Under the pieces are notes generated by a model, which worked only from the letters and a program-made list of their open reading frames with translations, did not search any database and was not told where the DNA came from. The position numbers were made by a program, and so were the translations under genes. DNA of 39,734 nucleotides from Escherichia phage vB_EcoM_SHAK7854. Location: sequence record OR594182; one strand, written 5' to 3'. Positions 1,826-39,255 of the stretch are shown here, piece after piece (positions within the stretch are counted from its first letter, which is position 1; every line of letters begins with the position of its first letter).

Positions 1826-1848
1826 ACTTAACTATCACTATAGGGAAG
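1826..1848 (+). promoter_or_regulatory. phage RNAP promoter (phiOR-like, downstream of gene 19)
   Basis: ACTTAACTATCACTATAGGGAAG; core CACTATAGGGA identical to T7 class III -8..+3. Confidence 0.7.
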
Positions 1849-3214: not shown

Positions 3215-3341
3215 GTACCACATCAACACGAAACAACGGTGACGACCAACACTGAAACGGTCTACCTGAAGTCCTCTGACTGAAGGGAATGCTCTTTAAC
3301 AATCTGGATAAACTCTTAATGTGCGCCGACAGTGATTAACT

Positions 3342-3390
3342 ACAGGGTCTTTGAGTCTACATCTGAAGGCCCTGACTGATAGCCACTAAC
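3342..3390 (+). repeat. early intergenic hairpin element type A, copy 1 (candidate RNase III site)
   Basis: GTGATTAACTACAGG...CCTGACTGATAG element with internal inverted repeat; precedes ORF 3398. Confidence 0.5.
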
Positions 3391-3397
3391 TTAACGG

Positions 3398-3652
3398 ATG
3401 GACACTATGAAACACTTAAGCACAATCACTAATCGCAATGAAGTATTCGTGAACACTAAAGGTTATGCGTGGATTCAGCTTAAAGAGATGAGAGGAGCGC
3501 GTCACCGTGTGGTAGTTCGCAAGGTATCAAGCAAGCCGTTCAGCAACTACAGCGTAGATACTATGCGTATAGACAACGAGACTTACCTGATAGACTCGCA
3601 GATAACCGTGCGTCCTACAGCGGGCATCTCAGCTCCTTATTTCGCTAACTGA
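3398..3652 (+). CDS. hypothetical early protein (84 aa)
   Basis: first ORF of the early region, downstream of the candidate host promoters; no homology recognised. Confidence 0.55.
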   Translation: MDTMKHLSTITNRNEVFVNTKGYAWIQLKEMRGARHRVVVRKVSSKPFSNYSVDTMRIDNETYLIDSQITVRPTAGISAPYFAN

Positions 3653-3654
3653 GG

Positions 3655-3705
3655 GTGATTAACTACAGGTCGTTAGACTGATAGCGGCCTGACTGATAGT
3701 CACTA
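3655..3705 (+). repeat. early intergenic hairpin element type A, copy 2
   Basis: GTGATTAACTACAGGTCGTTAGACTGATAGCGGCCTGACTGATAGTCACTA; CAGGTC/GGCCTG stem. Confidence 0.55.
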
Positions 3706-3725
3706 GCAACCTAAGAGGATTCATT

Positions 3726-4004
3726 ATGAGACTGAACAAAGCTACAGCAGAAGCCTTTCGCAAGGAGCTTGAATCAAGATTATTGTGTGGAGTGGCGGAA
3801 GGAGCCGCTCGATATAAAGAGAATGGTCTAACGTTCAAGCGCTTTATGTGGGATTGCTATCACGGAGTGGGCCATAAAAAGTCGCAGGAAATAATCACCA
3901 GCAACAATGCGGAAGTGCAAGTGATAGGAGGATACATGGCTAACGTGAAGGATTCACACATAGAGACAATGCTTAAGAATGCACTTAAAGATGTAGCCTA
4001 CTAG
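3726..4004 (+). CDS. hypothetical early protein (92 aa)
   Basis: ORF with AGAGGA RBS 7 nt upstream. Confidence 0.6.
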   Translation: MRLNKATAEAFRKELESRLLCGVAEGAARYKENGLTFKRFMWDCYHGVGHKKSQEIITSNNAEVQVIGGYMANVKDSHIETMLKNALKDVAY

Positions 4005-4054
4005 TGATTAACTACAGGTCGTTAGACTGATAGCGGCCTGACTGATAGTCACTA
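4004..4054 (+). repeat. early intergenic hairpin element type A, copy 3
   Basis: identical to copy 2 over about 50 bp. Confidence 0.55.
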
Positions 4055-4084
4055 ACACATAATTAACTTTGAGAGGATATAACT

Positions 4085-4733: not shown

Positions 4734-4782
4734 GTGACAGACTACAGGTCATCAATGCTGGTGGCCTGACTGATAGTCATTA
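4734..4782 (+). repeat. early intergenic hairpin element type A, copy 4
   Basis: GTGACAGACTACAGGTCATCAATGCTGGTGGCCTGACTGATAGTCATTAAC. Confidence 0.5.
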
Positions 4783-4800
4783 ACAACTGAGAGGGAAGAT

Positions 4801-5028
4801 ATGAACACAATCACTGGTGCCATAACCAAAGGTTTTCGAGCAATTTTCGGTGAAACGCAAGAAGTATGCACCAATCATAAATTCGTACTTTCTTGCGTAG
4901 CAGGTGACGAGTTTGACGGGTTCGATAAACTGGTGGTTTGCGACCATTGCGGACAAGAGGCTATCCAACACTCAAACGGTAAATTTGAATTAATAGACGA
5001 TAGCCTTACAGAAGGAGACGGCGAGTAA
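4801..5028 (+). CDS. hypothetical early protein (75 aa) with four cysteines and acidic C-terminus
   Basis: GAGAGGGAAG RBS; C-x8-C...C-x2-C spacing suggests a small zinc-binding fold. Confidence 0.55.
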   Translation: MNTITGAITKGFRAIFGETQEVCTNHKFVLSCVAGDEFDGFDKLVVCDHCGQEAIQHSNGKFELIDDSLTEGDGE

Positions 5029-5796: not shown

Positions 5797-5819
5797 ACTT
5801 AACTATCACTATAGGACTC
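5797..5819 (+). promoter_or_regulatory. phage RNAP promoter immediately upstream of the RNAP gene
   Basis: CTTAACTATCACTATAGGACTCA; +1 GGA. Confidence 0.6.
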
Positions 5820-5888: not shown

Positions 5889-8570
5889 ATGAGCGTCATC
5901 TCTATTGACAAACACGACTTCTCTGATGTGTCGAACGCCATTGAGCCGTTTAACCTGCTGGCTGACCACTACGGGCAAGACCTTGCAGTCAAACAGCTTC
6001 AGCTTGAGCATGAGGCCTACACTGAAGGTGAGCGACGTTTCATCAAGAACCTTGAGCGTCAGACCGAGCGAGGGGAACTGGCAGACAATCAGGTCGCCAA
6101 GCCTTTGATGCAGACTCTGGTTCCTAAGATTGCGCAAGCCGTCAAGGAGTGGCACGAAGGTCCAGACGGGAAGCTGTCAACCTCACGTCCGAGCGTAGCG
6201 TTCACCATGTTAAGCACTGAAGAGAAGGCCGTCAAGGACCGCTCTCTTCGCATCTCCTGCGAGTCTGCTGCGGTTATCATACTGAAGGTCATCCTCTCCA
6301 AGCTGGTCAAGCCTGAAGGTATACCGATTACACCGATGGCCTCCGCGATAGGTCGCACACTTGAGGATGAAATCCGATTCGGTCGCATTCGTGACAAGGA
6401 GAAGGAGCACTTCAAGAAGGCGATAGCTGATAACCTGAACAAGAGAGCCGGGGCATCATACAAGAAAGCCTACATGCAAGCGGTCGAGACATCCATGCTG
6501 GAGCAAGGCCAACTAGAAGATGCGTGGGGAACTTGGAGTCCGACCGAGGCTGTCCACGTTGGAATCAAGATGCTGGAGATTGTCATACAGTCAACACAAC
6601 TGGTCGAGCTTAAGCGTTACGGTGCTGGCAATGCAGCGGCTGACGTTGAGATGGTCCACCTGTCAGACTTCTGGGTCAAGAAGATGGCACAACGAGGATT
6701 CAGCCTTGCGGGTATCGCCCCAGTCTACCAGCCTTGCGTCGTTCCACCTAAGCCGTGGACTGGTGTCGTAGGTGGTGGGTACTGGGCCAAAGGTCGCAGA
6801 CCGTTACCATTGATTCGCTTAGGGTCTAAGTCTGCGGTAGCACGTTATGAAGACGTATACATGCCTGAAGTCTATGACGCTGTGAATATCATCCAGAATA
6901 CACCTTGGAAAGTGAACAAGAAGGTATTGGACGTGGTGAACAAGGTCGAGAAGCTGAACAACACGCCTATTGATGACATCCCTCAGATGGAACCGCTGAA
7001 GCCTGAGGACTATGCGGGTGAGACTGAAGAAGAACTCAAGGCATGGAAGAAGGCTGCTGCTGGTATCTATCGCCGCGAGAAGGCCAGACAGTCACGAAGA
7101 TTGTCACTGAGCTTTATCGTCAACCAAGCGAACAAGTTCTCTCAGTTCAAGGCCATCTGGTTCCCGTATAACATGGACTGGCGCGGTCGCGTCTACGCTG
7201 TGCCGATGTTCAACCCTCAGGGTAACGACATGCAAAAGGGTCTTCTGACTCTGGCAGTCGGTAAGCCTATTGGTGCTGATGGTTTCAAATGGCTGAAGGT
7301 CCACGGTGCAAACTGCGCGGGTGTCGATAAAGTCACCTTCGAGGAGCGTATCAAGTGGGTGGAAGATAACCACGACAACATCATGGCTGCTGCCAAGGCA
7401 CCGATGGATAGCATTGAGTGGTGGGGCAAGTTAGACTCTCCGTTCTGCTTCCTAGCGTTCTGCTTCGAGTATGCTGGCGTAATGCACCACGGCTTGTCTT
7501 ACTCCTGCTCGCTGCCGATAGCGTTCGATGGGTCCTGCTCTGGGATTCAGCACTTCAGCGCTATGCTTCGCGACCACATCGGTGGACATGCAGTAAACCT
7601 GACGCCATCCGGTAAGGTCCAAGACATCTACCGCATCGTGTCTGACCGCATTGAGGAGGAGCTTAAAGTCCTACTGGTTAACGGTACGGACAACGAGATG
7701 GTAACTCACGAGGACAAGAAAACTGGTGAGATTACCGAGCGTCTCAAGCTGGGGACACGAGAGCTTGCCCGTCAGTGGCTGACCTACGGTATGTCACGAA
7801 AGGTCACTAAGCGTTCGGTCATGACTCTGGCCTACGGGTCGAAAGAGTACGGCTTCGCAGACCAAGTTTACGAGGACATCGTGATGCCAGCGATTGACTC
7901 AGGGTCTGGCGCTATGTTCACTGAACCAAGCCAAGCATCTCGCTTCATGGCTAAGATGATTTGGGAAGCTGTGAGTGTGACCGTAGTTGCTGCGGTTGAC
8001 GCGATGAAATGGCTTCAGGGTGCTGCCAAGCTGCTTGCTGCTGAAGTGAAGGACAAGAAGACTGGAGAAATCCTGAAGCCTTGTCTTCCGGTACACTGGG
8101 TCACACCTGATGGTTTCCCTGTCTGGCAGGAATACCGCAAGAAGGACACCACTCGTCTGAACCTGATGTTCTTAGGGTCATTCAACCTTCAGCCTACCGT
8201 CAACAAAGGCACGAAGAAAGAGCTGGACAAGCACAAGCAGGAGTCAGGCATTAGCCCGAACTTCGTCCACTCACAAGATGGTAGCCACCTCCGCAAGACT
8301 GTAGTCCACACTCACCGAAAGTATGGCGTGATGTCATTCGCAGTGATTCACGATAGCTTCGGGACCATCCCGGCTGACGCTGAGTATCTGTTCCGTGGAG
8401 TCCGTGAGACGATGGTAGAGACTTACCGCGATAACGATGTGCTGCTTGACTTCTACGAGCAGTTTGAATACCAGCTTCATGAAAGTCAGCGCGACAAGTT
8501 GCCTGAGCTTCCGAAGAAAGGTAAACTAAATATCGAAGACATCTTGTCTTCAGACTTTGCATTCGCTTAA
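5889..8570 (+). CDS. single-subunit DNA-directed RNA polymerase (T7 gp1 family)
   Basis: 893 aa, collinear with T7 RNAP (PFNLLADHYG, WFPYNMDWRGRVYAV, SPFCFLAFCFEYAG, AFDGSCSGIQHFSAMLRD, HDSFGTIPADA, C-terminal FAFA). Confidence 0.97.
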   Translation: MSVISIDKHDFSDVSNAIEPFNLLADHYGQDLAVKQLQLEHEAYTEGERRFIKNLERQTERGELADNQVAKPLMQTLVPKIAQAVKEWHEGPDGKLSTSRPSVAFTMLSTEEKAVKDRSLRISCESAAVIILKVILSKLVKPEGIPITPMASAIGRTLEDEIRFGRIRDKEKEHFKKAIADNLNKRAGASYKKAYMQAVETSMLEQGQLEDAWGTWSPTEAVHVGIKMLEIVIQSTQLVELKRYGAGNAAADVEMVHLSDFWVKKMAQRGFSLAGIAPVYQPCVVPPKPWTGVVGGGYWAKGRRPLPLIRLGSKSAVARYEDVYMPEVYDAVNIIQNTPWKVNKKVLDVVNKVEKLNNTPIDDIPQMEPLKPEDYAGETEEELKAWKKAAAGIYRREKARQSRRLSLSFIVNQANKFSQFKAIWFPYNMDWRGRVYAVPMFNPQGNDMQKGLLTLAVGKPIGADGFKWLKVHGANCAGVDKVTFEERIKWVEDNHDNIMAAAKAPMDSIEWWGKLDSPFCFLAFCFEYAGVMHHGLSYSCSLPIAFDGSCSGIQHFSAMLRDHIGGHAVNLTPSGKVQDIYRIVSDRIEEELKVLLVNGTDNEMVTHEDKKTGEITERLKLGTRELARQWLTYGMSRKVTKRSVMTLAYGSKEYGFADQVYEDIVMPAIDSGSGAMFTEPSQASRFMAKMIWEAVSVTVVAAVDAMKWLQGAAKLLAAEVKDKKTGEILKPCLPVHWVTPDGFPVWQEYRKKDTTRLNLMFLGSFNLQPTVNKGTKKELDKHKQESGISPNFVHSQDGSHLRKTVVHTHRKYGVMSFAVIHDSFGTIPADAEYLFRGVRETMVETYRDNDVLLDFYEQFEYQLHESQRDKLPELPKKGKLNIEDILSSDFAFA

Positions 8571-9117: not shown

Positions 9118-9140
9118 CCTAAACTATCACTATAGGATTA
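9118..9140 (+). promoter_or_regulatory. phage RNAP promoter (phi1.1-like)
   Basis: CCTAAACTATCACTATAGGATTA. Confidence 0.7.
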
Positions 9141-9182
9141 GACTCAAGGTCATGACTCAAAGTCGTGGCCTTCATGATTAAC
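9138..9182 (+). repeat. hairpin element type B (candidate RNase III site, R1.1-like)
   Basis: TTAGACTCAAGGTCATGACT...AGTCGTGGCCTT imperfect 12-bp stem. Confidence 0.5.
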
Positions 9183-9213
9183 CCTAAATAAACACTACTG
9201 GAGATTTAACCGT

Positions 9214-10795: not shown

Positions 10796-10818
10796 CCTAA
10801 GCTATCACTATAGGACAA
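10796..10818 (+). promoter_or_regulatory. phage RNAP promoter
   Basis: CCTAAGCTATCACTATAGGACAA. Confidence 0.65.
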
Positions 10819-10844: not shown

Positions 10845-11099
10845 ATGTTTAAGAACTTAATGTTCAATCGTTATACCAGTACATTCCACCTGTCTCACAA
10901 CCCATTAGCTTGCATTAAGCGCAACGAGAAGATGGGATACTTCGGGAAGGCCGTTAAGCTGTCACCTACAGTCTTCGCTCTGATTACTCCTGGCAAAGCT
11001 GAAGAGGCTCGACAGAAGCAGGAGACAAGTGTGCCTGTGGTCTACACTAAGTGGCCTCGCTTTCGTCTGTTCGTTGAGTTCGTGAAGGAGGTGTTCTGA
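10845..11099 (+). CDS. hypothetical protein (84 aa; gene 1.4-1.6 region)
   Basis: AAGGAGG RBS. Confidence 0.5.
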   Translation: MFKNLMFNRYTSTFHLSHNPLACIKRNEKMGYFGKAVKLSPTVFALITPGKAEEARQKQETSVPVVYTKWPRFRLFVEFVKEVF

Positions 11100-11814: not shown

Positions 11815-11969
11815 CTGACGTAGAGAAGAAGTACATCGTGGAGCTTGAGGGTCGCATTCAGTCCTTCGAGGTTCCGGTGTACGCAAAGTCTCTTGAAGAG
11901 GCTACCCTGAAGTCCCAAGAGTATGAGGACGCTGGGTTTGTGGTCGGACGGATTCGTCCTGAGACCTAA
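11811..11969 (+). CDS. Gp2-like inhibitor of host RNA polymerase (52 aa)
   Basis: [14 protein letters not shown]...[10 protein letters not shown] resembles T7 Gp2 SFEVPIYAETLDEA...AGFEVTRVRP. Confidence 0.75.
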
Positions 11970-11987
11970 ACTATCACTGTAGGACAG
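11965..11987 (+). promoter_or_regulatory. phage RNAP promoter, variant (TGTAGG)
   Basis: CCTAAACTATCACTGTAGGACAG; stop codon of the Gp2-like gene lies within it. Confidence 0.55.
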
Positions 11988-14144: not shown

Positions 14145-14360
14145 ATGATTAAACTTATCGAATTTCTTGGTCGTCTGGTGGTGCGTGGTTATCGTCGTGC
14201 TGCGGTACTGGAACGAAAGGTAGAAAAGAAGACTGCGGACGGTGCGGCTGATGCTGCTGCTCTGGCTGACAAGCTGACCATCGCGTCACTGGAAGCTGGC
14301 ATGAAGGCGCGTCAGGCTGACACCAAAGCCGACCAGTTGGCTCAGTTCTTCAAAGCCTAA
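14145..14360 (+). CDS. hypothetical protein (71 aa; gene 3.8 position)
   Basis: AGGGAGAA RBS; Ala/Lys-rich, probably helical. Confidence 0.5.
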   Translation: MIKLIEFLGRLVVRGYRRAAVLERKVEKKTADGAADAAALADKLTIASLEAGMKARQADTKADQLAQFFKA

Positions 14361-14378
14361 ACTATCACCTTAGGGATG
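14356..14378 (+). promoter_or_regulatory. phage RNAP promoter, variant (CCTTAGGG)
   Basis: CCTAAACTATCACCTTAGGGATG; overlaps upstream stop; followed by GGGAC...GTCCC hairpin. Confidence 0.5.
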
Positions 14379-16140: not shown

Positions 16141-16305
16141 TTGCTAAGAAAACTTAAAGCTCGCTACCATCGGTTCATGTACAAATGGTGGAGCGACGAA
16201 GCAACCTGCCTGTCGAACATTCTGGGAGACCAGCGGTTCAACTCTGAGGCATGGAAGAAAGCTAACCGGAAGTTCATGTATCACTTCTTGCGTACAGACT
16301 TCTAG
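16141..16305 (+). CDS. hypothetical basic protein (54 aa; gene 4.3-4.5 region), TTG start
   Basis: AAGGAGGAG RBS; the ORF-track ATG start at 16108 lies inside gp4. Confidence 0.35.
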   Translation: MLRKLKARYHRFMYKWWSDEATCLSNILGDQRFNSEAWKKANRKFMYHFLRTDF

Positions 16306-16357
16306 GTCTAGACTCAAGGTCATTCACATAGAGTGGCCTTTATGATTAGACTAAACG
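16306..16357 (+). repeat. hairpin element type B (candidate RNase III site)
   Basis: GTCTAGACTCAAGGTCAT...GTGGCCTTTATGATTAGAC. Confidence 0.5.
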
Positions 16358-20019: not shown

Positions 20020-20042
20020 ACTAAACTATCACTATAGGGACT
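20020..20042 (+). promoter_or_regulatory. phage RNAP promoter (phi6.5-like)
   Basis: ACTAAACTATCACTATAGGGACT. Confidence 0.75.
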
Positions 20043-21294: not shown

Positions 21295-22863
21295 ATGGCT
21301 GAACGTGAAGGGTTCGCTGCTGAAGGAGCCAAAGCGGTCTATGACCGACTGAAGAACGGTAGACAGCCATATGAGACACGCGCTCAGAACTGTGCTGCTG
21401 TCACTATCCCGTCACTGTTTCCTAAGGAGTCCGACAACTCGTCTACTGAGTACACCACTCCGTGGCAAGCTGTGGGTGCTCGCTGCTTGAACAACTTGGC
21501 TGCGAAGCTGATGTTGGCATTATTCCCTCAGTCACCGTGGATGCGACTTACAGTCTCCGAATATGAGGCAAAGACCTTGAGTCAGGACTCAGAGGCGGCT
21601 GCTCGTGTTGATGAAGGGCTGGCTATGGTCGAGCGTGTGTTGATGGCTTACATGGAGACTAACAGTTTCCGTGTCCCATTATTCGAGGCGCTGAAGCAGC
21701 TTATCGTCTCAGGTAACTGCCTGCTCTACATCCCTCCTCCAGAACAAGGAACCTACAGTCCTATGCGAATGTACCGCTTAGTGTCCTACGTTGTTCAACG
21801 TGATGCTTTCGGTAACATCTTACAGATTGTGACTCTCGACAAGGTAGCGTTTAGTGCTCTACCGGAAGACGTGAAGTCTCAACTCAACGCAGACGACTAT
21901 GAGCCTGACACCGAGCTTGAAGTCTATACGCACATCTACCGTCAGGACGACGAGTATCTGCGCTACGAGGAAGTGGAAGGCATTGAGGTGACAGGTACCG
22001 ATGGTTCCTACCCGCTGACTGCATGTCCATACATCCCGGTACGAATGGTTCGACTGGATGGTGAAGACTACGGTCGTTCTTACTGCGAGGAGTATCTGGG
22101 CGACCTCAACTCGCTGGAGACGATTACAGAAGCTATCACAAAAATGGCTAAGGTAGCCTCCAAGGTGGTGGGCCTCGTTAACCCGAACGGTATCACGCAG
22201 CCTAGACGTCTGAACAAGGCGGCTACAGGTGAGTTCGTGGCTGGTCGAGTTGAGGACATCAACTTCCTGCAACTGACGAAAGGTCAGGACTTTACGATTG
22301 CTAAGTCGGTGGCTGACGCTATCGAGCAACGTTTAGGCTGGGCCTTCCTTCTTAATAGTGCTGTTCAGCGTAATGCCGAGCGTGTCACTGCTGAAGAGAT
22401 TCGTTATGTTGCTGGCGAACTGGAGGCGACCTTAGGTGGCGTGTACTCAGTACAGTCACAAGAGCTTCAGTTGCCTATCGTCCGTGTGCTGATGAACCAA
22501 CTTCAGTCTGCTGGCATGATTCCAGACCTTCCGAAAGAAGCGGTAGAGCCTACGGTCTCCACTGGTCTGGAAGCGTTAGGTCGTGGTCAGGACTTAGAGA
22601 AGCTGACTCAGGCAGTCAACATGATGACCGGGCTACAGCCTCTACAACAGGACCCAGACATTAACTTGCCTACACTGAAGCTGCGACTGCTGAATGCCTT
22701 AGGCATTGACACCGCTGGTCTGCTACTGACTCAGGACGAGAAGTTGCAACGCATGGCTGAACAATCCGCTCAAGGAGCTGTGGTCAATGGTGCGTCTGCT
22801 GCTGGTGCTAACATGGGTGCTGCTGTGGGTCAGGGAGCTGGTGAGGACATGGCTCAAGCCTAA
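21295..22863 (+). CDS. portal (head-tail connector) protein (T7 gp8 family)
   Basis: YETRAQNCA, TIPSLFPK, TPWQAVGAR, YVVQRDAFGN, LRYEEVEG, GRSYCEEYLGDL, RVTAEEIRYVA. Confidence 0.95.
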   Translation: MAEREGFAAEGAKAVYDRLKNGRQPYETRAQNCAAVTIPSLFPKESDNSSTEYTTPWQAVGARCLNNLAAKLMLALFPQSPWMRLTVSEYEAKTLSQDSEAAARVDEGLAMVERVLMAYMETNSFRVPLFEALKQLIVSGNCLLYIPPPEQGTYSPMRMYRLVSYVVQRDAFGNILQIVTLDKVAFSALPEDVKSQLNADDYEPDTELEVYTHIYRQDDEYLRYEEVEGIEVTGTDGSYPLTACPYIPVRMVRLDGEDYGRSYCEEYLGDLNSLETITEAITKMAKVASKVVGLVNPNGITQPRRLNKAATGEFVAGRVEDINFLQLTKGQDFTIAKSVADAIEQRLGWAFLLNSAVQRNAERVTAEEIRYVAGELEATLGGVYSVQSQELQLPIVRVLMNQLQSAGMIPDLPKEAVEPTVSTGLEALGRGQDLEKLTQAVNMMTGLQPLQQDPDINLPTLKLRLLNALGIDTAGLLLTQDEKLQRMAEQSAQGAVVNGASAAGANMGAAVGQGAGEDMAQA

Positions 22864-22881
22864 ACTATCACTATAGGAACA
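22859..22881 (+). promoter_or_regulatory. phage RNAP promoter (phi9-like)
   Basis: CCTAAACTATCACTATAGGAACA; overlaps portal stop codon. Confidence 0.7.
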
Positions 22882-23838: not shown

Positions 23839-23861
23839 ACTAAACTATCACTATAGGGAGA
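23839..23861 (+). promoter_or_regulatory. phage RNAP promoter (phi10-like, strongest consensus match)
   Basis: ACTAAACTATCACTATAGGGAGA; +1..+6 GGGAGA as in T7 class III. Confidence 0.8.
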
Positions 23862-28611: not shown

Positions 28612-28656
28612 GGGCCTATAGATTTACCTTAACTATCACTATAGGGACTATAGGCC
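28612..28656 (+). other. 10-bp perfect inverted repeat (GGGCCTATAG / CTATAGGCCC) enclosing the promoter before gene 13
   Basis: arms at 28612..28621 and 28647..28656. Confidence 0.5.
28627..28649 (+). promoter_or_regulatory. phage RNAP promoter (phi13-like)
   Basis: CCTTAACTATCACTATAGGGACT. Confidence 0.7.
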
Positions 28657-35000: not shown

Positions 35001-35917
35001 GCCTGACTGGTAGTAAGCGTAAGTTCGATGACCGCTGGCTGAAGACCGCTGGTATATCTGACGAGCAGTGGAGTGGAATTAAGTCCCTAATCCGTGAGTC
35101 AGTGACTCGTGGGCCAGACGGGAAGTACACCATCAAGGATAAGAAGGCATTCAGTCAGGACCCAAGGGCTATGGACCTGTGGCGTATGGGTGACACCATC
35201 GCTGACGAGACGTTACTCCGGCCTCATAAGCTGTCAAACATGGACGCCAAGGCTTATGGTCCTCTCGCTAAGACTGTCCTTCAGTTTAAGAACTTCGTCA
35301 TCAAGTCTATCAATGGGAGAACCATGCGAACCTTCTATAACGCCACGAAGAACAACAGAGCGATTGACGCTGCACTGTCGACCGTGATGTCTATGGGTCT
35401 GGCTGGTATCTACTACATGGCTCAGGCGCATGTCAAGGCTTATGCTATGCAGGATGGTCGAGACCGTGACTACCTTAAGCAAGCTCTGGACCCAACGATG
35501 ATTGGCTATGCGGCCCTGTCCCGTAGTTCACATCTTGGTGGCCCACTTGGGGTAGCTAACATTCTGGGAGGCATCGCTGGATATGAGGACACTAAGATGC
35601 TCCGTTCGTCTATCCTACCTCGTTCTCCTACAGAGAAGCCTGAGCGTGCCATCGCGTATGGTGCAGCTACAAGTGACCCTGTGATGAATGTTGTTGGTAA
35701 CTTCTTGGAGCAGGTTCCAGCTTTCGGATATGCTGCTAACGTTGGCGCTTCGGCTTACAACTTGGCTGGCTACCTCAAGGCTGATACTCGTGTCAACGAG
35801 CGTGACTACATGACCGGGATGTATAATACGTTCCGTGAACTGGTTCCGAACGACCCCATTACCCAGAAGCTGCTGCTTGGAACGTTTGAGGAGCAAGGCA
35901 TCCACATCAAGGACTAA
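32030..35917 (+). CDS. internal virion protein C/D (T7 gp16 family) with divergent N-terminal domain
   Basis: 1295 aa; from about residue 200 collinear with T7 gp16 (RWNSHIWT-like, GGSPQNL, VRSPTGMQSGASGK, TYVPHVY, RPEVK, AYGISH, ENNSFLEARNLFDSD, RRVNGDIAIM, FFAKNAYMG, NGTTNYLLDA, RAMDLWR, NNRAIDAALS, DPTMIGYAALSRSS, LVPNDP). Confidence 0.93.
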   Translation: MATRGIRNNNPGNIRVSKDQWEGMTGDDGAFVTFDSPESGVRALGKNLLSYGRQGYDSIEKIINRWAPPNENDTKAYIDSVVAATGIPATQSLDLSDPDTLSSLAQAISFHETGSRYDPEVYQKGVARALNGISPKTPPVSANVFDALTEGLKAKPKVALGENLPTAAGLNIEGQAPESPNESFGEMFYKATGETMQEQEDRSTWFGFGAATEAEVKNSMVGVAIRAGQTEDSLDVIGDVFNPTRWNNHKWSREELDQIRNAGVLPQYYGVITGGSPQNLTELINLALENQKLDQEKAKAGTGAQLAAGVIGAGVDPLTYVPIAGQVGKGGKLVNKMFTVAAQSGALAGASEIARTSVAGGDAHVAEAILGGALFGGGMTAIADGLGRALGRNTNEFAGPATRLEARETARNVDGQDLSRLPIQEGEQTFSHQGVKFADVPNEPGSVRLEDGSILIGENPLNPKTRQVFDEVIEPERAAAGVNLGGLTEIGLKLLRSENPEIRGVAADLVRSPTGMQSGASGKIGTTASDVFERLRAVDHRFYNDIDDAVTEALKDPYFQTAFWRDSGAFRQDIYQRVSMAIEDGSGNLKAELTPGELKVYDLLKNQFDAKREMMENPAMFGRPDAQSIFPGSRFKGTYVPHVYSKQMKELYIKELGSPEALQEAIKKSWLTSYASRPEVKKRVDEALLEADPTLTPEGLAAAVDKYANDKAYGISHTEQFERSSVMEENINGLVGLENNSFLEARNLFDSDMSIVLPNGQTFSVNNLREWDMDKIVPAYNRRVNGDIAIMAGTGKTTKEMKDLVETMMNKAGDDGKLKGEVSTLRDTLKILTGRARRDGADDAAFATVMRTMTDLSFFAKNAYMGVQNLTEIGGMLARGNVRALLHGVPMFRDLAFRNKKVGASEIKDLHNVIFGKELDDSIRPSKQDVIDRLRSYSDLSRGTATALGTAKYYTGELVVRSPFTKVLNGTTNYLLDAGRQGFLSDIVEHSLTGSKRKFDDRWLKTAGISDEQWSGIKSLIRESVTRGPDGKYTIKDKKAFSQDPRAMDLWRMGDTIADETLLRPHKLSNMDAKAYGPLAKTVLQFKNFVIKSINGRTMRTFYNATKNNRAIDAALSTVMSMGLAGIYYMAQAHVKAYAMQDGRDRDYLKQALDPTMIGYAALSRSSHLGGPLGVANILGGIAGYEDTKMLRSSILPRSPTEKPERAIAYGAATSDPVMNVVGNFLEQVPAFGYAANVGASAYNLAGYLKADTRVNERDYMTGMYNTFRELVPNDPITQKLLLGTFEEQGIHIKD

Positions 35918-35935
35918 ACTATCACTATAGGAAAC
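35913..35935 (+). promoter_or_regulatory. phage RNAP promoter (phi17-like)
   Basis: ACTAAACTATCACTATAGGAAAC; overlaps gp16 stop codon. Confidence 0.7.
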
Positions 35936-38894: not shown

Positions 38895-39154
38895 CGCAGA
38901 TGGACTTAGAGAAGTTCCTCTTGATGCTTGATACTGAGCGTGCTCGACTTATGCTGCAAGACTTGCGGGATGACACTAAGCGTTCACCTCAGCTCTACAA
39001 CGCCATTGAGAAGCTGCTTGCTCGTCACAACTTTGTGTTAAGCAAGGTGTCTGTTGACGAGAAGACGCTGGCTGATATGGAGGCCCTGAACGCAGAGTAC
39101 GATAAGGTGCTTTCAGCGACTGAGGATAATGACACCGGGTATGGCGTTCAATAA
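38891..39154 (+). CDS. terminase small subunit (T7 gp18 family)
   Basis: LMLDTERA, RSPQLYNAIEKLLARH matches T7 gp18. Confidence 0.85.
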   Translation: MTQMDLEKFLLMLDTERARLMLQDLRDDTKRSPQLYNAIEKLLARHNFVLSKVSVDEKTLADMEALNAEYDKVLSATEDNDTGYGVQ

Positions 39155-39155
39155 G

Positions 39156-39205
39156 TGTTAGACTCAAGGTCATTACTGTATGTAGTGGCCTTTATGGTTA
39201 ACACT
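39156..39205 (+). repeat. hairpin element type B (candidate RNase III site, R18.5-like)
   Basis: GTGTTAGACTCAAGGTCATTACTGTATGTAGTGGCCTTTATGGTTAACAC. Confidence 0.5.
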
Positions 39206-39255
39206 AACTAGTGGAGGAGACTCTACGTGCAATCTGATAAACCGGGAGGGCAACT

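Follow-up and report, generated by a model that had tools for sequence, protein, structure and literature searches.

R756N, rather than a change at position 748, accompanies the CTA promoter of a K1F-type phage RNA polymerase

Gene 1 and the phage promoters

The window analysed here, a stretch of 39,734 nucleotides (record OR594182, Escherichia phage vB_EcoM_SHAK7854), is a complete Kayfunavirus (K1F-like) phage genome; an Rfam scan of the window returned no family above threshold. Its gene 1 (Table 1) encodes an RNA polymerase whose translation contains FLGSFNLQPTVNKGTKKELDKHKQESG. The protein matched T7 RNA polymerase chains in the PDB over its full length (E = 0; query 1–893 versus T7 1–883), and the Pfam domains RNA_pol (PF00940; 1.5e-106, 357 bits) and RPOL_N (PF14700; 6.4e-15, 56 bits) both scored above their cut-offs. 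T7 numbering was anchored on the catalytic and active-site residues D537, K631, Y639, H784 and D812, all of which are kept (D547, K641, Y649, H794 and D822 in the window). The domains, the active site, a hairpin of T7 length and a repeated promoter place the enzyme among the T7-family single-subunit RNA polymerases.

The polymerase is 63.8% identical to that of T7 and 99.4% identical to that of K1F (gp1.0, NC_007456), from which it differs by five substitutions over 893 residues (K113R, T201A, D330E, K352M and D374A). None of these lies in the specificity loop, which is identical over T7 740–775, including S754, V761 and N748/N756/Q758. The gene is 96–98% identical to many Kayfunavirus records, and 135 phage records encode an identical 56-residue loop region. 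In genome-wide nucleotide comparison, the nearest records covered 92–97% of the first 25 kb at 93–96% identity. The window shares all 11 promoters with the K1F genome, in identical order and with common variant bases; in both genomes one of them stands 75 nt before gene 1, and the direct terminal repeat of K1F begins with the same sequence as that of the window. Divergence between the two is at strain level only, the window genome being about 94–96% identical to its nearest records.

The promoter 18-mer was found at 11 sites with no more than three mismatches, against 0.04 expected by chance, and all 11 lie on the + strand. Their consensus is (A/C)CTAAACTATCACTATAGG(A/G), with CTAAACTATCACTATAGG as the core. 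Positions −12 to −8 read ACTAT in 10 promoters and GCTAT in one; the published core of the K1F promoter is ACTAT (PMC11880802 Table 2). The promoter differs from that of T7 at −17 to −9, with GAC at −11 to −9 replaced by CTA, and is identical to it from −8 to +2, T at −8 and C at −7 being kept in all 11. The original prediction for this locus had CTA at −11 to −9 in every promoter, and C, T and A were each present in 11/11 phage-type promoters. No T7-type promoter was found in the window at three mismatches or fewer. One phage promoter stands directly before gene 1, where the T7 genome has no T7-type promoter.

Table 1. Gene 1, its specificity determinants and the phage promoters (positions in the window).
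Feature	Position	Strand	Remarks
Phage promoter (−17 to +6), ACTTAACTATCACTATAGGGAAG	1826..1848	+	After gene 19, position of the T7 right-end promoter phiOR; collinear with K1F 38853
Phage promoter	5797..5819	+	+1 at 5814, 75 nt upstream of RNA polymerase start codon
Gene 1, T7-family single-subunit RNA polymerase, K1F type	5889..8570	+	ORF of 893 aa
AT-rich recognition loop counterpart (T7 93–101)	6165..6197	+	DGKLSTSRPSV versus KAKRGKRPT; 11% identity to T7, followed by an 11-aa insertion
Specificity loop, YRKKDTTRLNLMFLGSFNLQPTVNKGTKKELD	8133..8228	+	T7 739–770 = window aa 749–780; gap-free alignment to T7, T3, K11 and K1F
R756	8154..8156	+	T7 R746, conserved
N758	8160..8162	+	T7 N748, −11/−10 reader, conserved; column is D in T3 and K in K11
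S764	8178..8180	+	T7 Q754, hairpin tip; among the three substitutions of the published T7(K1F) graft (PMC11880802 Table 2)
N766	8184..8186	+	T7 R756; sole base-reading residue unlike T7
Peptide of the original prediction, LQPTVNKGTKKELDKHKQ, aa 767–784	8187..8240	+	T7 757–774, returning arm and base of hairpin
Q768	8190..8192	+	T7 Q758, conserved
Distal stretch NKGTKKELDK	8202..8231	+	T7 762–771, NTNKDSEIDA; net charge +2 versus −2 in T7
Phage promoter	9118..9140	+	Exact consensus
Phage promoter	10796..10818	+	G at −12; same variant in K1F at 7184
Phage promoter	11965..11987	+	G at −3; same variant in K1F at 8500
Phage promoter	14356..14378	+	CT at −4/−3; same variant in K1F at 10867
Phage promoter	20020..20042	+	Exact consensus
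Phage promoter	22859..22881	+	Exact consensus
Phage promoter	23839..23861	+	Exact consensus, GGGAGA start
Phage promoter	28627..28649	+	T at −14
Phage promoter	35913..35935	+	Exact consensus

Base-reading residues of the specificity loop

The original prediction had tied the altered promoter to the peptide LQPTVNKGTKKELDKHKQ. Both this peptide and the T7 peptide set against it are real, the latter exactly as quoted, and alignment with T7, T3 and K11 places the segment within T7 residues 739–770, the usual limits of the specificity loop (PMC8874028). The region given for it, 8190–8250, was the right one, but its start was 3 nt late and its end 10 nt late.

On the template strand, the T7 loop contacts G at −9 through R756 and A at −8 through Q758, whereas N748 contacts the non-template strand at −11 (PMC8874028); R746 contacts the template-strand G at −7 (PMC8874028, PMC11880802). 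This base-reading set, R746/N748/R756/Q758 in T7, is R/N/N/Q in the window enzyme. Among the base-reading residues, the real change relative to T7 is therefore R756N (window N766), not N748. The N766 codon lies one codon before LQPTVNKGTKKELDKHKQ, just outside the flagged range, and the only base-contacting residue inside the flagged segment, Q758 (window Q768), is conserved. The opposite arm of the hairpin differs from T7 by K740R/P742K/I743D/Q744T. A PDB sequence search found no structure of a K1F RNA polymerase–DNA complex.

Among related loci, Arg at 756 co-occurs with C at −9 (in all RNRQ, RDRQ and RDRA classes), and Asn at 756 co-occurs with TA at −10/−9 in the K1F-type and KP32-type classes. 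Across reference genomes and IMG/VR loci, each promoter class corresponded to one combination at 746/748/756/758, the single exception being an N756D variant in the GGTAG class; the RNRQ combination also serves several related promoters (AGACT and CAACT as well). In this comparison, the broader promoter anchor was misplaced at two loci, L006 (early-region repeat) and L045 (tandem repeat), and a stricter anchor gave the expected promoter for L006.

Published engineering bears on the same residues. T7 RNA polymerase carrying K1F residues at 744–761 drives the ACTAT promoter and is orthogonal to the T7, T3 and N4-type pairs (PMC3458549), the changes in this graft being listed as 754S, 756N and 761V (Q754S/R756N/I761V; PMC11880802 Table 2). 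A coupling analysis over 740–768 found strong coupling to the promoter only at 746, 748, 756, 757 and 758 (PMC11880802). The divergent stretch that was flagged is not needed for the switch, because T7 762–771 stayed in place in the 744–761 graft.

We therefore favour, with a probability of roughly 0.85, the reading that the flagged segment forms the base and returning arm of the specificity β-hairpin in a K1F-type RNA polymerase, that promoter choice is mainly set in the tip half of this hairpin, and that R756N accompanies CTA. The enzyme would transcribe the middle and late genes of the phage from the 11 promoters, with its choice of promoter set mainly by the tip half (T7 745–760), which lies in the major groove between −11 and −7. 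With R746, N748 and Q758 retained, the bases read at −7 and −8 are those of T7. In place of Arg756, the residue that binds the template-strand G at −9 in T7, the window enzyme has Asn, and in place of Q754 it has Ser; these changes go together with the shift from GAC to CTA at −11 to −9. Being shorter than Arg and capable of pairing with adenine, Asn766 may read T:A and A:T at −10/−9, and this may reposition the retained Asn758 to accept C:G at −11. We thus infer that the enzyme owes its own promoter type to the change of T7 Arg756 to Asn, at position 756 rather than 748, and that R756N alone may lie behind all three base changes. The seven substitutions at 763–771, together with K740R/P742K/I743D/Q744T, would be lineage-specific changes at the hairpin base that at most adjust non-specific backbone affinity and do not read the differing bases.

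One observation counts against this explanation: the promoter has C in place of G at −11 and T in place of A at −10, yet N748 is unchanged.

A second region probably contributes to the distinct promoter. The counterpart of the AT-rich recognition loop is strongly divergent from that of T7 (Table 1), and the promoter reads (A/C)CT(A/T)A at −17 to −13, compared with TAATA in T7; the divergent loop probably accounts for this difference.

The returning arm of the hairpin

The flagged peptide aligns without gaps to LQPTINTNKDSEIDAHKQ (T7 RNA polymerase 757–774) and differs from it at 8 of 18 residues (I761V, T763K, N764G, K765T, D766K, S767K, I769L and A771K). Divergence is greatest in its distal part. 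Residues 762–771 are 30% identical to T7, compared with 70% for the whole polymerase domain, and form one of the two most divergent 10-residue stretches in T7 560–883; across the whole protein, about 12% of 10-residue windows are equally or more divergent.

It is possible, although unlikely, that this basic distal arm (NKGTKKELDK) takes part in promoter binding as a co-adapted element, its backbone contacts offsetting the lost Arg756–guanine contact. It would then act on affinity, and indirectly on selectivity, without reading any bases. The charge shift of +4 relative to T7 fits this idea, as do molecular dynamics simulations of T7 RNA polymerase in which K765 occasionally forms salt bridges with non-template positions around −12 to −10 (PMC8874028) and which therefore place the distal arm near the DNA. 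The graft, which lacks the K1F arm, is weaker than T7 RNA polymerase (17-fold versus 42-fold induction; PMC3458549), and as a split fragment it required M750R, an added positive charge, for useful activity (PMC4299498). Affinity may therefore also come from K1F residues beyond the grafted ones, possibly 762–771. In addition, N-K-G occurs at 762–764 in both of the separate lineages that combine Asn756 with TA at −10/−9 (K1F-type and KP32-type), whereas K11, whose Asn756 goes with AC or GC at −10/−9, has N-T-G there.

Several observations argue against such co-adaptation. Shared ancestry fits the same pattern equally well, the KP32-type arm is not basic overall (NKGEAKEIDA, net −1), and residues 762–768 were not flagged by the coupling analysis over 740–768 (PMC11880802). 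The arm also varies where the promoter does not: among phages with ACTAT promoters, 763 (K/R) and 765 (T/S/M) vary with the promoter unchanged. In line with the preferred reading, the same holds in the CGACT class for 764, 768, 771 and 772, and one related locus (L018) combines a comparable distal arm (NLGKSKEMDK) with an AGGTA promoter, its residues at 748/756/758 being K/Q/R.

We also searched for natural chimeras between tip and arm. When both chimeric 56-mers were compared by tblastn with 50,697 phage records, only parent types (87.5%) were present among the matches listed; one record in the 95–99% band, beyond those listed, was taken as a partial alignment. A degenerate DNA pattern for N-L-x-F-L-G-x-F-N-L-Q-P-T retrieved 20 IMG/VR contigs, all Kayfunavirus-sized and all with the K1F-type distal arm, and no chimeras. 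The halves of the loop were thus not seen apart in the phage records or in IMG/VR, and the comparative data therefore leave room for a role of the distal arm.

A wider form of the idea, which we consider similarly improbable, is that the basic returning arm (763–771, with Lys at 763, 766, 767 and 771) and the changed residues 740–744 form a co-evolved affinity module that compensates for the lost Arg756–guanine contact in K1F-type polymerases. If true, it would explain the weakness of grafts limited to 744–761, and transplanting 740–771 instead would give better orthogonal T7 variants.

In T7 elongation complexes, structures show the specificity loop lining the RNA exit path, so that a role of the basic arm in elongation is conceivable. 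That the distal-arm differences act there and not in initiation, with a more basic arm altering RNA handling, promoter clearance or termination, is nevertheless very improbable: H772R and E775V, which adjoin the arm, arise repeatedly in selections as mutations that raise activity (PMC6182181), but H772 and E775 are both conserved in the window enzyme. Least probable of all, with almost no chance of being right, is the original prediction that the flagged segment holds a replaced equivalent of Asn748 that retargets the enzyme to CTA at −11 to −9: 8 of 18 residues in the segment are indeed unlike T7, but of the two Asn in the quoted T7 peptide N762 is kept and N764, now Gly, is not N748 either, the anchored numbering puts N748 nine residues upstream of LQPTVNKGTKKELDKHKQ within TRLNLMF, where it is conserved as window N758 outside the flagged coordinates, and T3 and K11 differ at this column, matching its known role, whereas the window enzyme and K1F keep Asn.

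Relation to known polymerase–promoter pairs

The preferred reading, in which promoter choice is mainly set in the tip half and R756N accompanies CTA, shares with T3 RNA polymerase the principle that one or a few hairpin substitutions retarget −11 to −9. In T3, which reads CCC at these positions, 748 is changed to Asp and R756 is kept; in the window enzyme, which reads CTA, N748 is kept and 756 is changed. A T3-type N748D specificity switch was rejected, window N758 still being Asn. In common with T7 RNA polymerase, the enzyme has the fold, the catalytic residues, the loop length, R746/N748/Q758 and the promoter from −8 to +2; it differs by R756N, Q754S, both hairpin-base arms and the AT-rich loop with the insertion after it. 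The engineered T7(K1F)/K1FR variants (Temme 2012, PMC3458549; Segall-Shapiro 2014, PMC4299498) have the same tip (S754, N756 and V761) and the same ACTAT target at −12 to −8, but keep the T7 762–771 arm, the T7 AT-rich loop and the T7 promoter sequence at −17 to −13; in the natural system, each of these is distinct.

The proposal of a distinct polymerase–promoter pair was correct, with 11 ACTAT-type promoters and none of T7 type, but the pair was already known and the cause given for it, replacement of N748, was wrong. Native K1F RNA polymerase and its own promoter form a working orthogonal expression pair (PMC12218169), and transcription from PK1F but not PT7 is known for both K1F RNA polymerase and the graft (PMC12218169, PMC3458549); the window enzyme is five residues away from K1F, all outside the loop. 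Over more than 10 years, the K1F pair has been predicted, grafted into T7 RNA polymerase and put to use for orthogonal expression and mutagenesis. The window thus adds little new biology, being a further representative of a phage genus that is already well sampled. Its useful outcome is a correction: the position that matters appears to be 756 and not 748, and the stretch that diverges so conspicuously was dispensable for switching in the published graft.

Identity of the polymerase and its specificity loop

The RNA polymerase (RNAP) gene of the window encodes an 893-aa protein with the Pfam domains RNA_pol and RPOL_N; PDB chains of T7 RNA polymerase match it over full length (E = 0). The protein is 99.4% identical to K1F RNAP, compared with 63.8% for T7, 63.7% for T3, 59.4% for K11 and 32.4% for SP6. 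Many Kayfunavirus phages share the gene at 96–98% nucleotide identity and the first 25 kb of the window at 93–96% identity (92–97% of length covered), and an identical 56-aa loop region is present in 135 phage records. The polymerase–promoter pair of this phage is the well-known K1F type, already known. The sequence observation behind the original prediction is real, and its conclusion of a distinct pair was right, but the reason that it gave, replacement of the T7 Asn748 equivalent, was not.

We aligned the protein with the T7, T3, K11, SP6 and K1F RNAPs from their reference genomes, anchoring T7 numbering on D537, K631, Y639, H784 and D812, which are all conserved in the window RNAP. Around the loop, T7, T3, K11, K1F and the window align without gaps. 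The peptide on which the replacement had been based, LQPTVNKGTKKELDKHKQ, is present at residues 767–784 (nt 8187–8240), so that the 8190–8250 first assigned to it is slightly offset, and the T7 counterpart quoted for it (T7 757–774) is correct. T7 Asn748 lies within TRLNLMF, nine residues upstream of this peptide, and is conserved; its column holds D in T3 and K in K11, as expected for a known specificity position. R746, N748, R756 and Q758 of T7 form hydrogen bonds with promoter bases (PMC11880802, PMC8874028). Among these, R756 alone differs in the window, where it is Asn, one codon upstream of the peptide; Q758, the sole base-contacting residue within the peptide, is unchanged. The claimed replacement of the Asn748 equivalent is therefore incorrect.

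Other differences fall at the base of the hairpin, on one arm (K740R, P742K, I743D and Q744T) and on the opposite arm (T763K through A771K), and from the sequence they look like repacking particular to this lineage. Divergence is locally concentrated in the distal stretch, which has 30% identity to T7 versus 70% for the polymerase domain and whose net charge goes from −2 in T7 to +2 in the window.

Features of the window and the T7 reference loop
Feature	Position (nt)	Detail
RNAP gene	5889–8570 (+)	
Specificity loop, T7		T7 739–770, YKKPIQTRLNLMFLGQFRLQPTINTNKDSEID
Specificity loop, window	8133–8228	YRKKDTTRLNLMFLGSFNLQPTVNKGTKKELD
T7 Asn748 equivalent	8160–8162	N758
T7 R756 equivalent	8184–8186	N766
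Peptide of the original prediction	8187–8240	residues 767–784
AT-rich recognition loop counterpart	6165–6197	
AT-rich loop region	6165–6263	RNAP aa 93–125
Cognate promoter before RNAP gene	5797–5819	+1 at 5814; 75 nt upstream of start codon 5889
Promoter	9118–9140	
Promoter-like copy	9180–9202	AACCCTAAATAAACACTACTGGA; 65 nt past promoter 9118–9140
Tandem duplication	2424–2606, 2607–2789	183 nt, perfect
Three-copy element	9138–9190, 16303–16348, 39153–39210	first copy immediately after promoter 9118–9140
Early-region repeats	3331–3346, 3655–3708, 4004–4057	ahead of small ORFs
Further early-region repeats	3371–3411, 4765–4805	ahead of small ORFs

Hairpin residues and promoter class

We extracted the loop and derived promoters locus by locus for 80 IMG/VR loci with RNAP alignment, together with reference genomes. 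Each promoter class had one residue combination, except that one variant of the GGTAG class carries N756D.

Residue combinations and promoter cores
746/748/756/758	Promoter −12 to −8
RNRQ	CGACT (few loci: AGACT, CAACT)
RDRQ	ACCCT
RDRA	ACCCA
RKNK	GGACA or GGGCA
RKNF	GGTAG
RKQR	AGGTA
RNNQ	ACTAT

Across the loci compared, the ACTAT class has invariant tip residues, and positions 750 (M/L), 761 (V/I), 763 (K/R) and 765 (T/S/M) vary with the promoter constant; in the CGACT class the same holds for positions 764, 768, 771 and 772. The sister lineage L018, whose RNAP is 79% identical to that of the window (best tblastn segment), has a similar distal arm (NLGKSKEMDK); its residues 748/756/758 are K/Q/R and its promoter is of the AGGTA class. 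It follows that the distal arm tracks lineage and the tip tracks the promoter. Klebsiella-phage RNAPs of the KP32 type (L051, L053–L058, L060, L062, L066, L073, L076, L077, L079, L080 and L084) and of the K11 type (L004 and relatives) have K748/N756 in common. The KP32 type has F758, T750 and K763 with a GGTAG promoter, and the K11 type has K758, V750 and T763 with a GGACA promoter; L073 has D at 756 and an unchanged promoter.

Chimeric loop queries against 50,697 phage records gave only parental types among the matches listed, and all IMG/VR contigs hit by a degenerate K1F-tip pattern were Kayfunavirus. The comparison is limited in that the two halves of the loop never come apart in these natural sequences, and an engineered graft is thus the only direct test. 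Temme et al. (2012) grouped T7-like RNAPs by hairpin sequence, with one promoter core per group, and swapped in K1F sequence for T7 Q744–I761 and the K1F consensus for −12 to −7 of the T7 promoter (PMC3458549). Activity of the T7(K1F) enzyme reached 17-fold induction versus 42-fold for T7, and the enzyme was orthogonal to T7, T3 and N4-type pairs (PMC3458549). It is listed as 754S, 756N and 761V with the cognate core ACTAT (Zhu et al. 2025, Table 2; PMC11880802), exactly the residues and bases of the window. Because the graft ends at 761, T7's own 762–771 stayed and is compatible with K1F-type recognition. Direct-coupling analysis of the K740–E768 loop region across T7-like RNAP–promoter pairs limited strong couplings to positions 746, 748, 756, 757 and 758, pairing residue 756 with −10 and −9 and residue 748 with −11 and −10 (Zhu et al., PMC11880802). 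In a split polymerase, the K1F loop required M750R to regain activity (Segall-Shapiro et al. 2014, PMC4299498), and in E. coli and Halomonas native K1F RNAP with PK1F is in use for orthogonal expression and mutagenesis (PMC12218169).

In T7, R756 contacts G−9 of the template, Q758 contacts A−8, R746 contacts G−7 and N748 contacts non-template −11 (PMC8874028). Asn at 756, which would lack the reach of Arg and its pairing to guanine and would pair well with adenine, may read the T:A and A:T pairs at −10 and −9; with Ser754 at the tip, it may also move the hairpin into a position where the retained Asn748 can accommodate C:G at −11. A modest contribution of the distal arm to affinity is improbable; we keep it in view because K765 forms occasional salt bridges near −12 to −10 in T7 simulations (PMC8874028) and the graft is weak. 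The AT-rich recognition loop counterpart shows only 11% identity to T7, and after it comes an 11-aa insertion common to the window and K1F (20 aa at the same place in K11); DGKLSTSRPSV stands here against KAKRGKRPT in T7, almost wholly different. This altered loop probably goes with the different promoter sequence at −17 to −13, a determinant absent from the original prediction.

Promoters, repeats and possible autoregulation

The 18-mer CTAAACTATCACTATAGG occurs 11 times at three or fewer mismatches, always on the + strand, versus 0.04 expected; no T7-type promoter was found in the window. With +1 placed via identity with the T7 promoter from −8 to +2, C, T and A occupy −11, −10 and −9 in all 11 promoters, as originally noted, and ACTAT occupies −12 to −8 in ten. 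K1F likewise has 11 promoters, in the same order and with the same variant bases. A degenerate promoter-like copy lacks the CTATCAC core and, judged from its sequence, is probably not functional.

The window also holds a tandem duplication whose unit begins like the 178-nt direct terminal repeat of K1F; the window would therefore be a rotated linear genome with its two repeats joined, placing the physical ends at about 2606/2607. Each copy of the conserved three-copy element is predicted to form a hairpin of two stems separated by an internal loop (z = −3.3 to −4.2). In this the element is similar to T7-type RNase III processing sites, and no Rfam family matches it. Among the early-region repeats, which are intergenic and probably early-transcript RNase III sites, the 54-nt copies are predicted to fold stably as hairpins with interrupted stems (−24 kcal/mol; z = −3.9 and −5.0).

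A promoter lies directly ahead of the RNAP gene in 19 of 19 K1F-type loci, and L018 has its own AGGTA-type promoter there too. None of the 48 T7-, T3-, K11-, KP32- and SP6-type loci has one, and the T7 annotation shows no such promoter before gene 1. The cognate promoter in front of its own polymerase gene suggests positive autoregulation.
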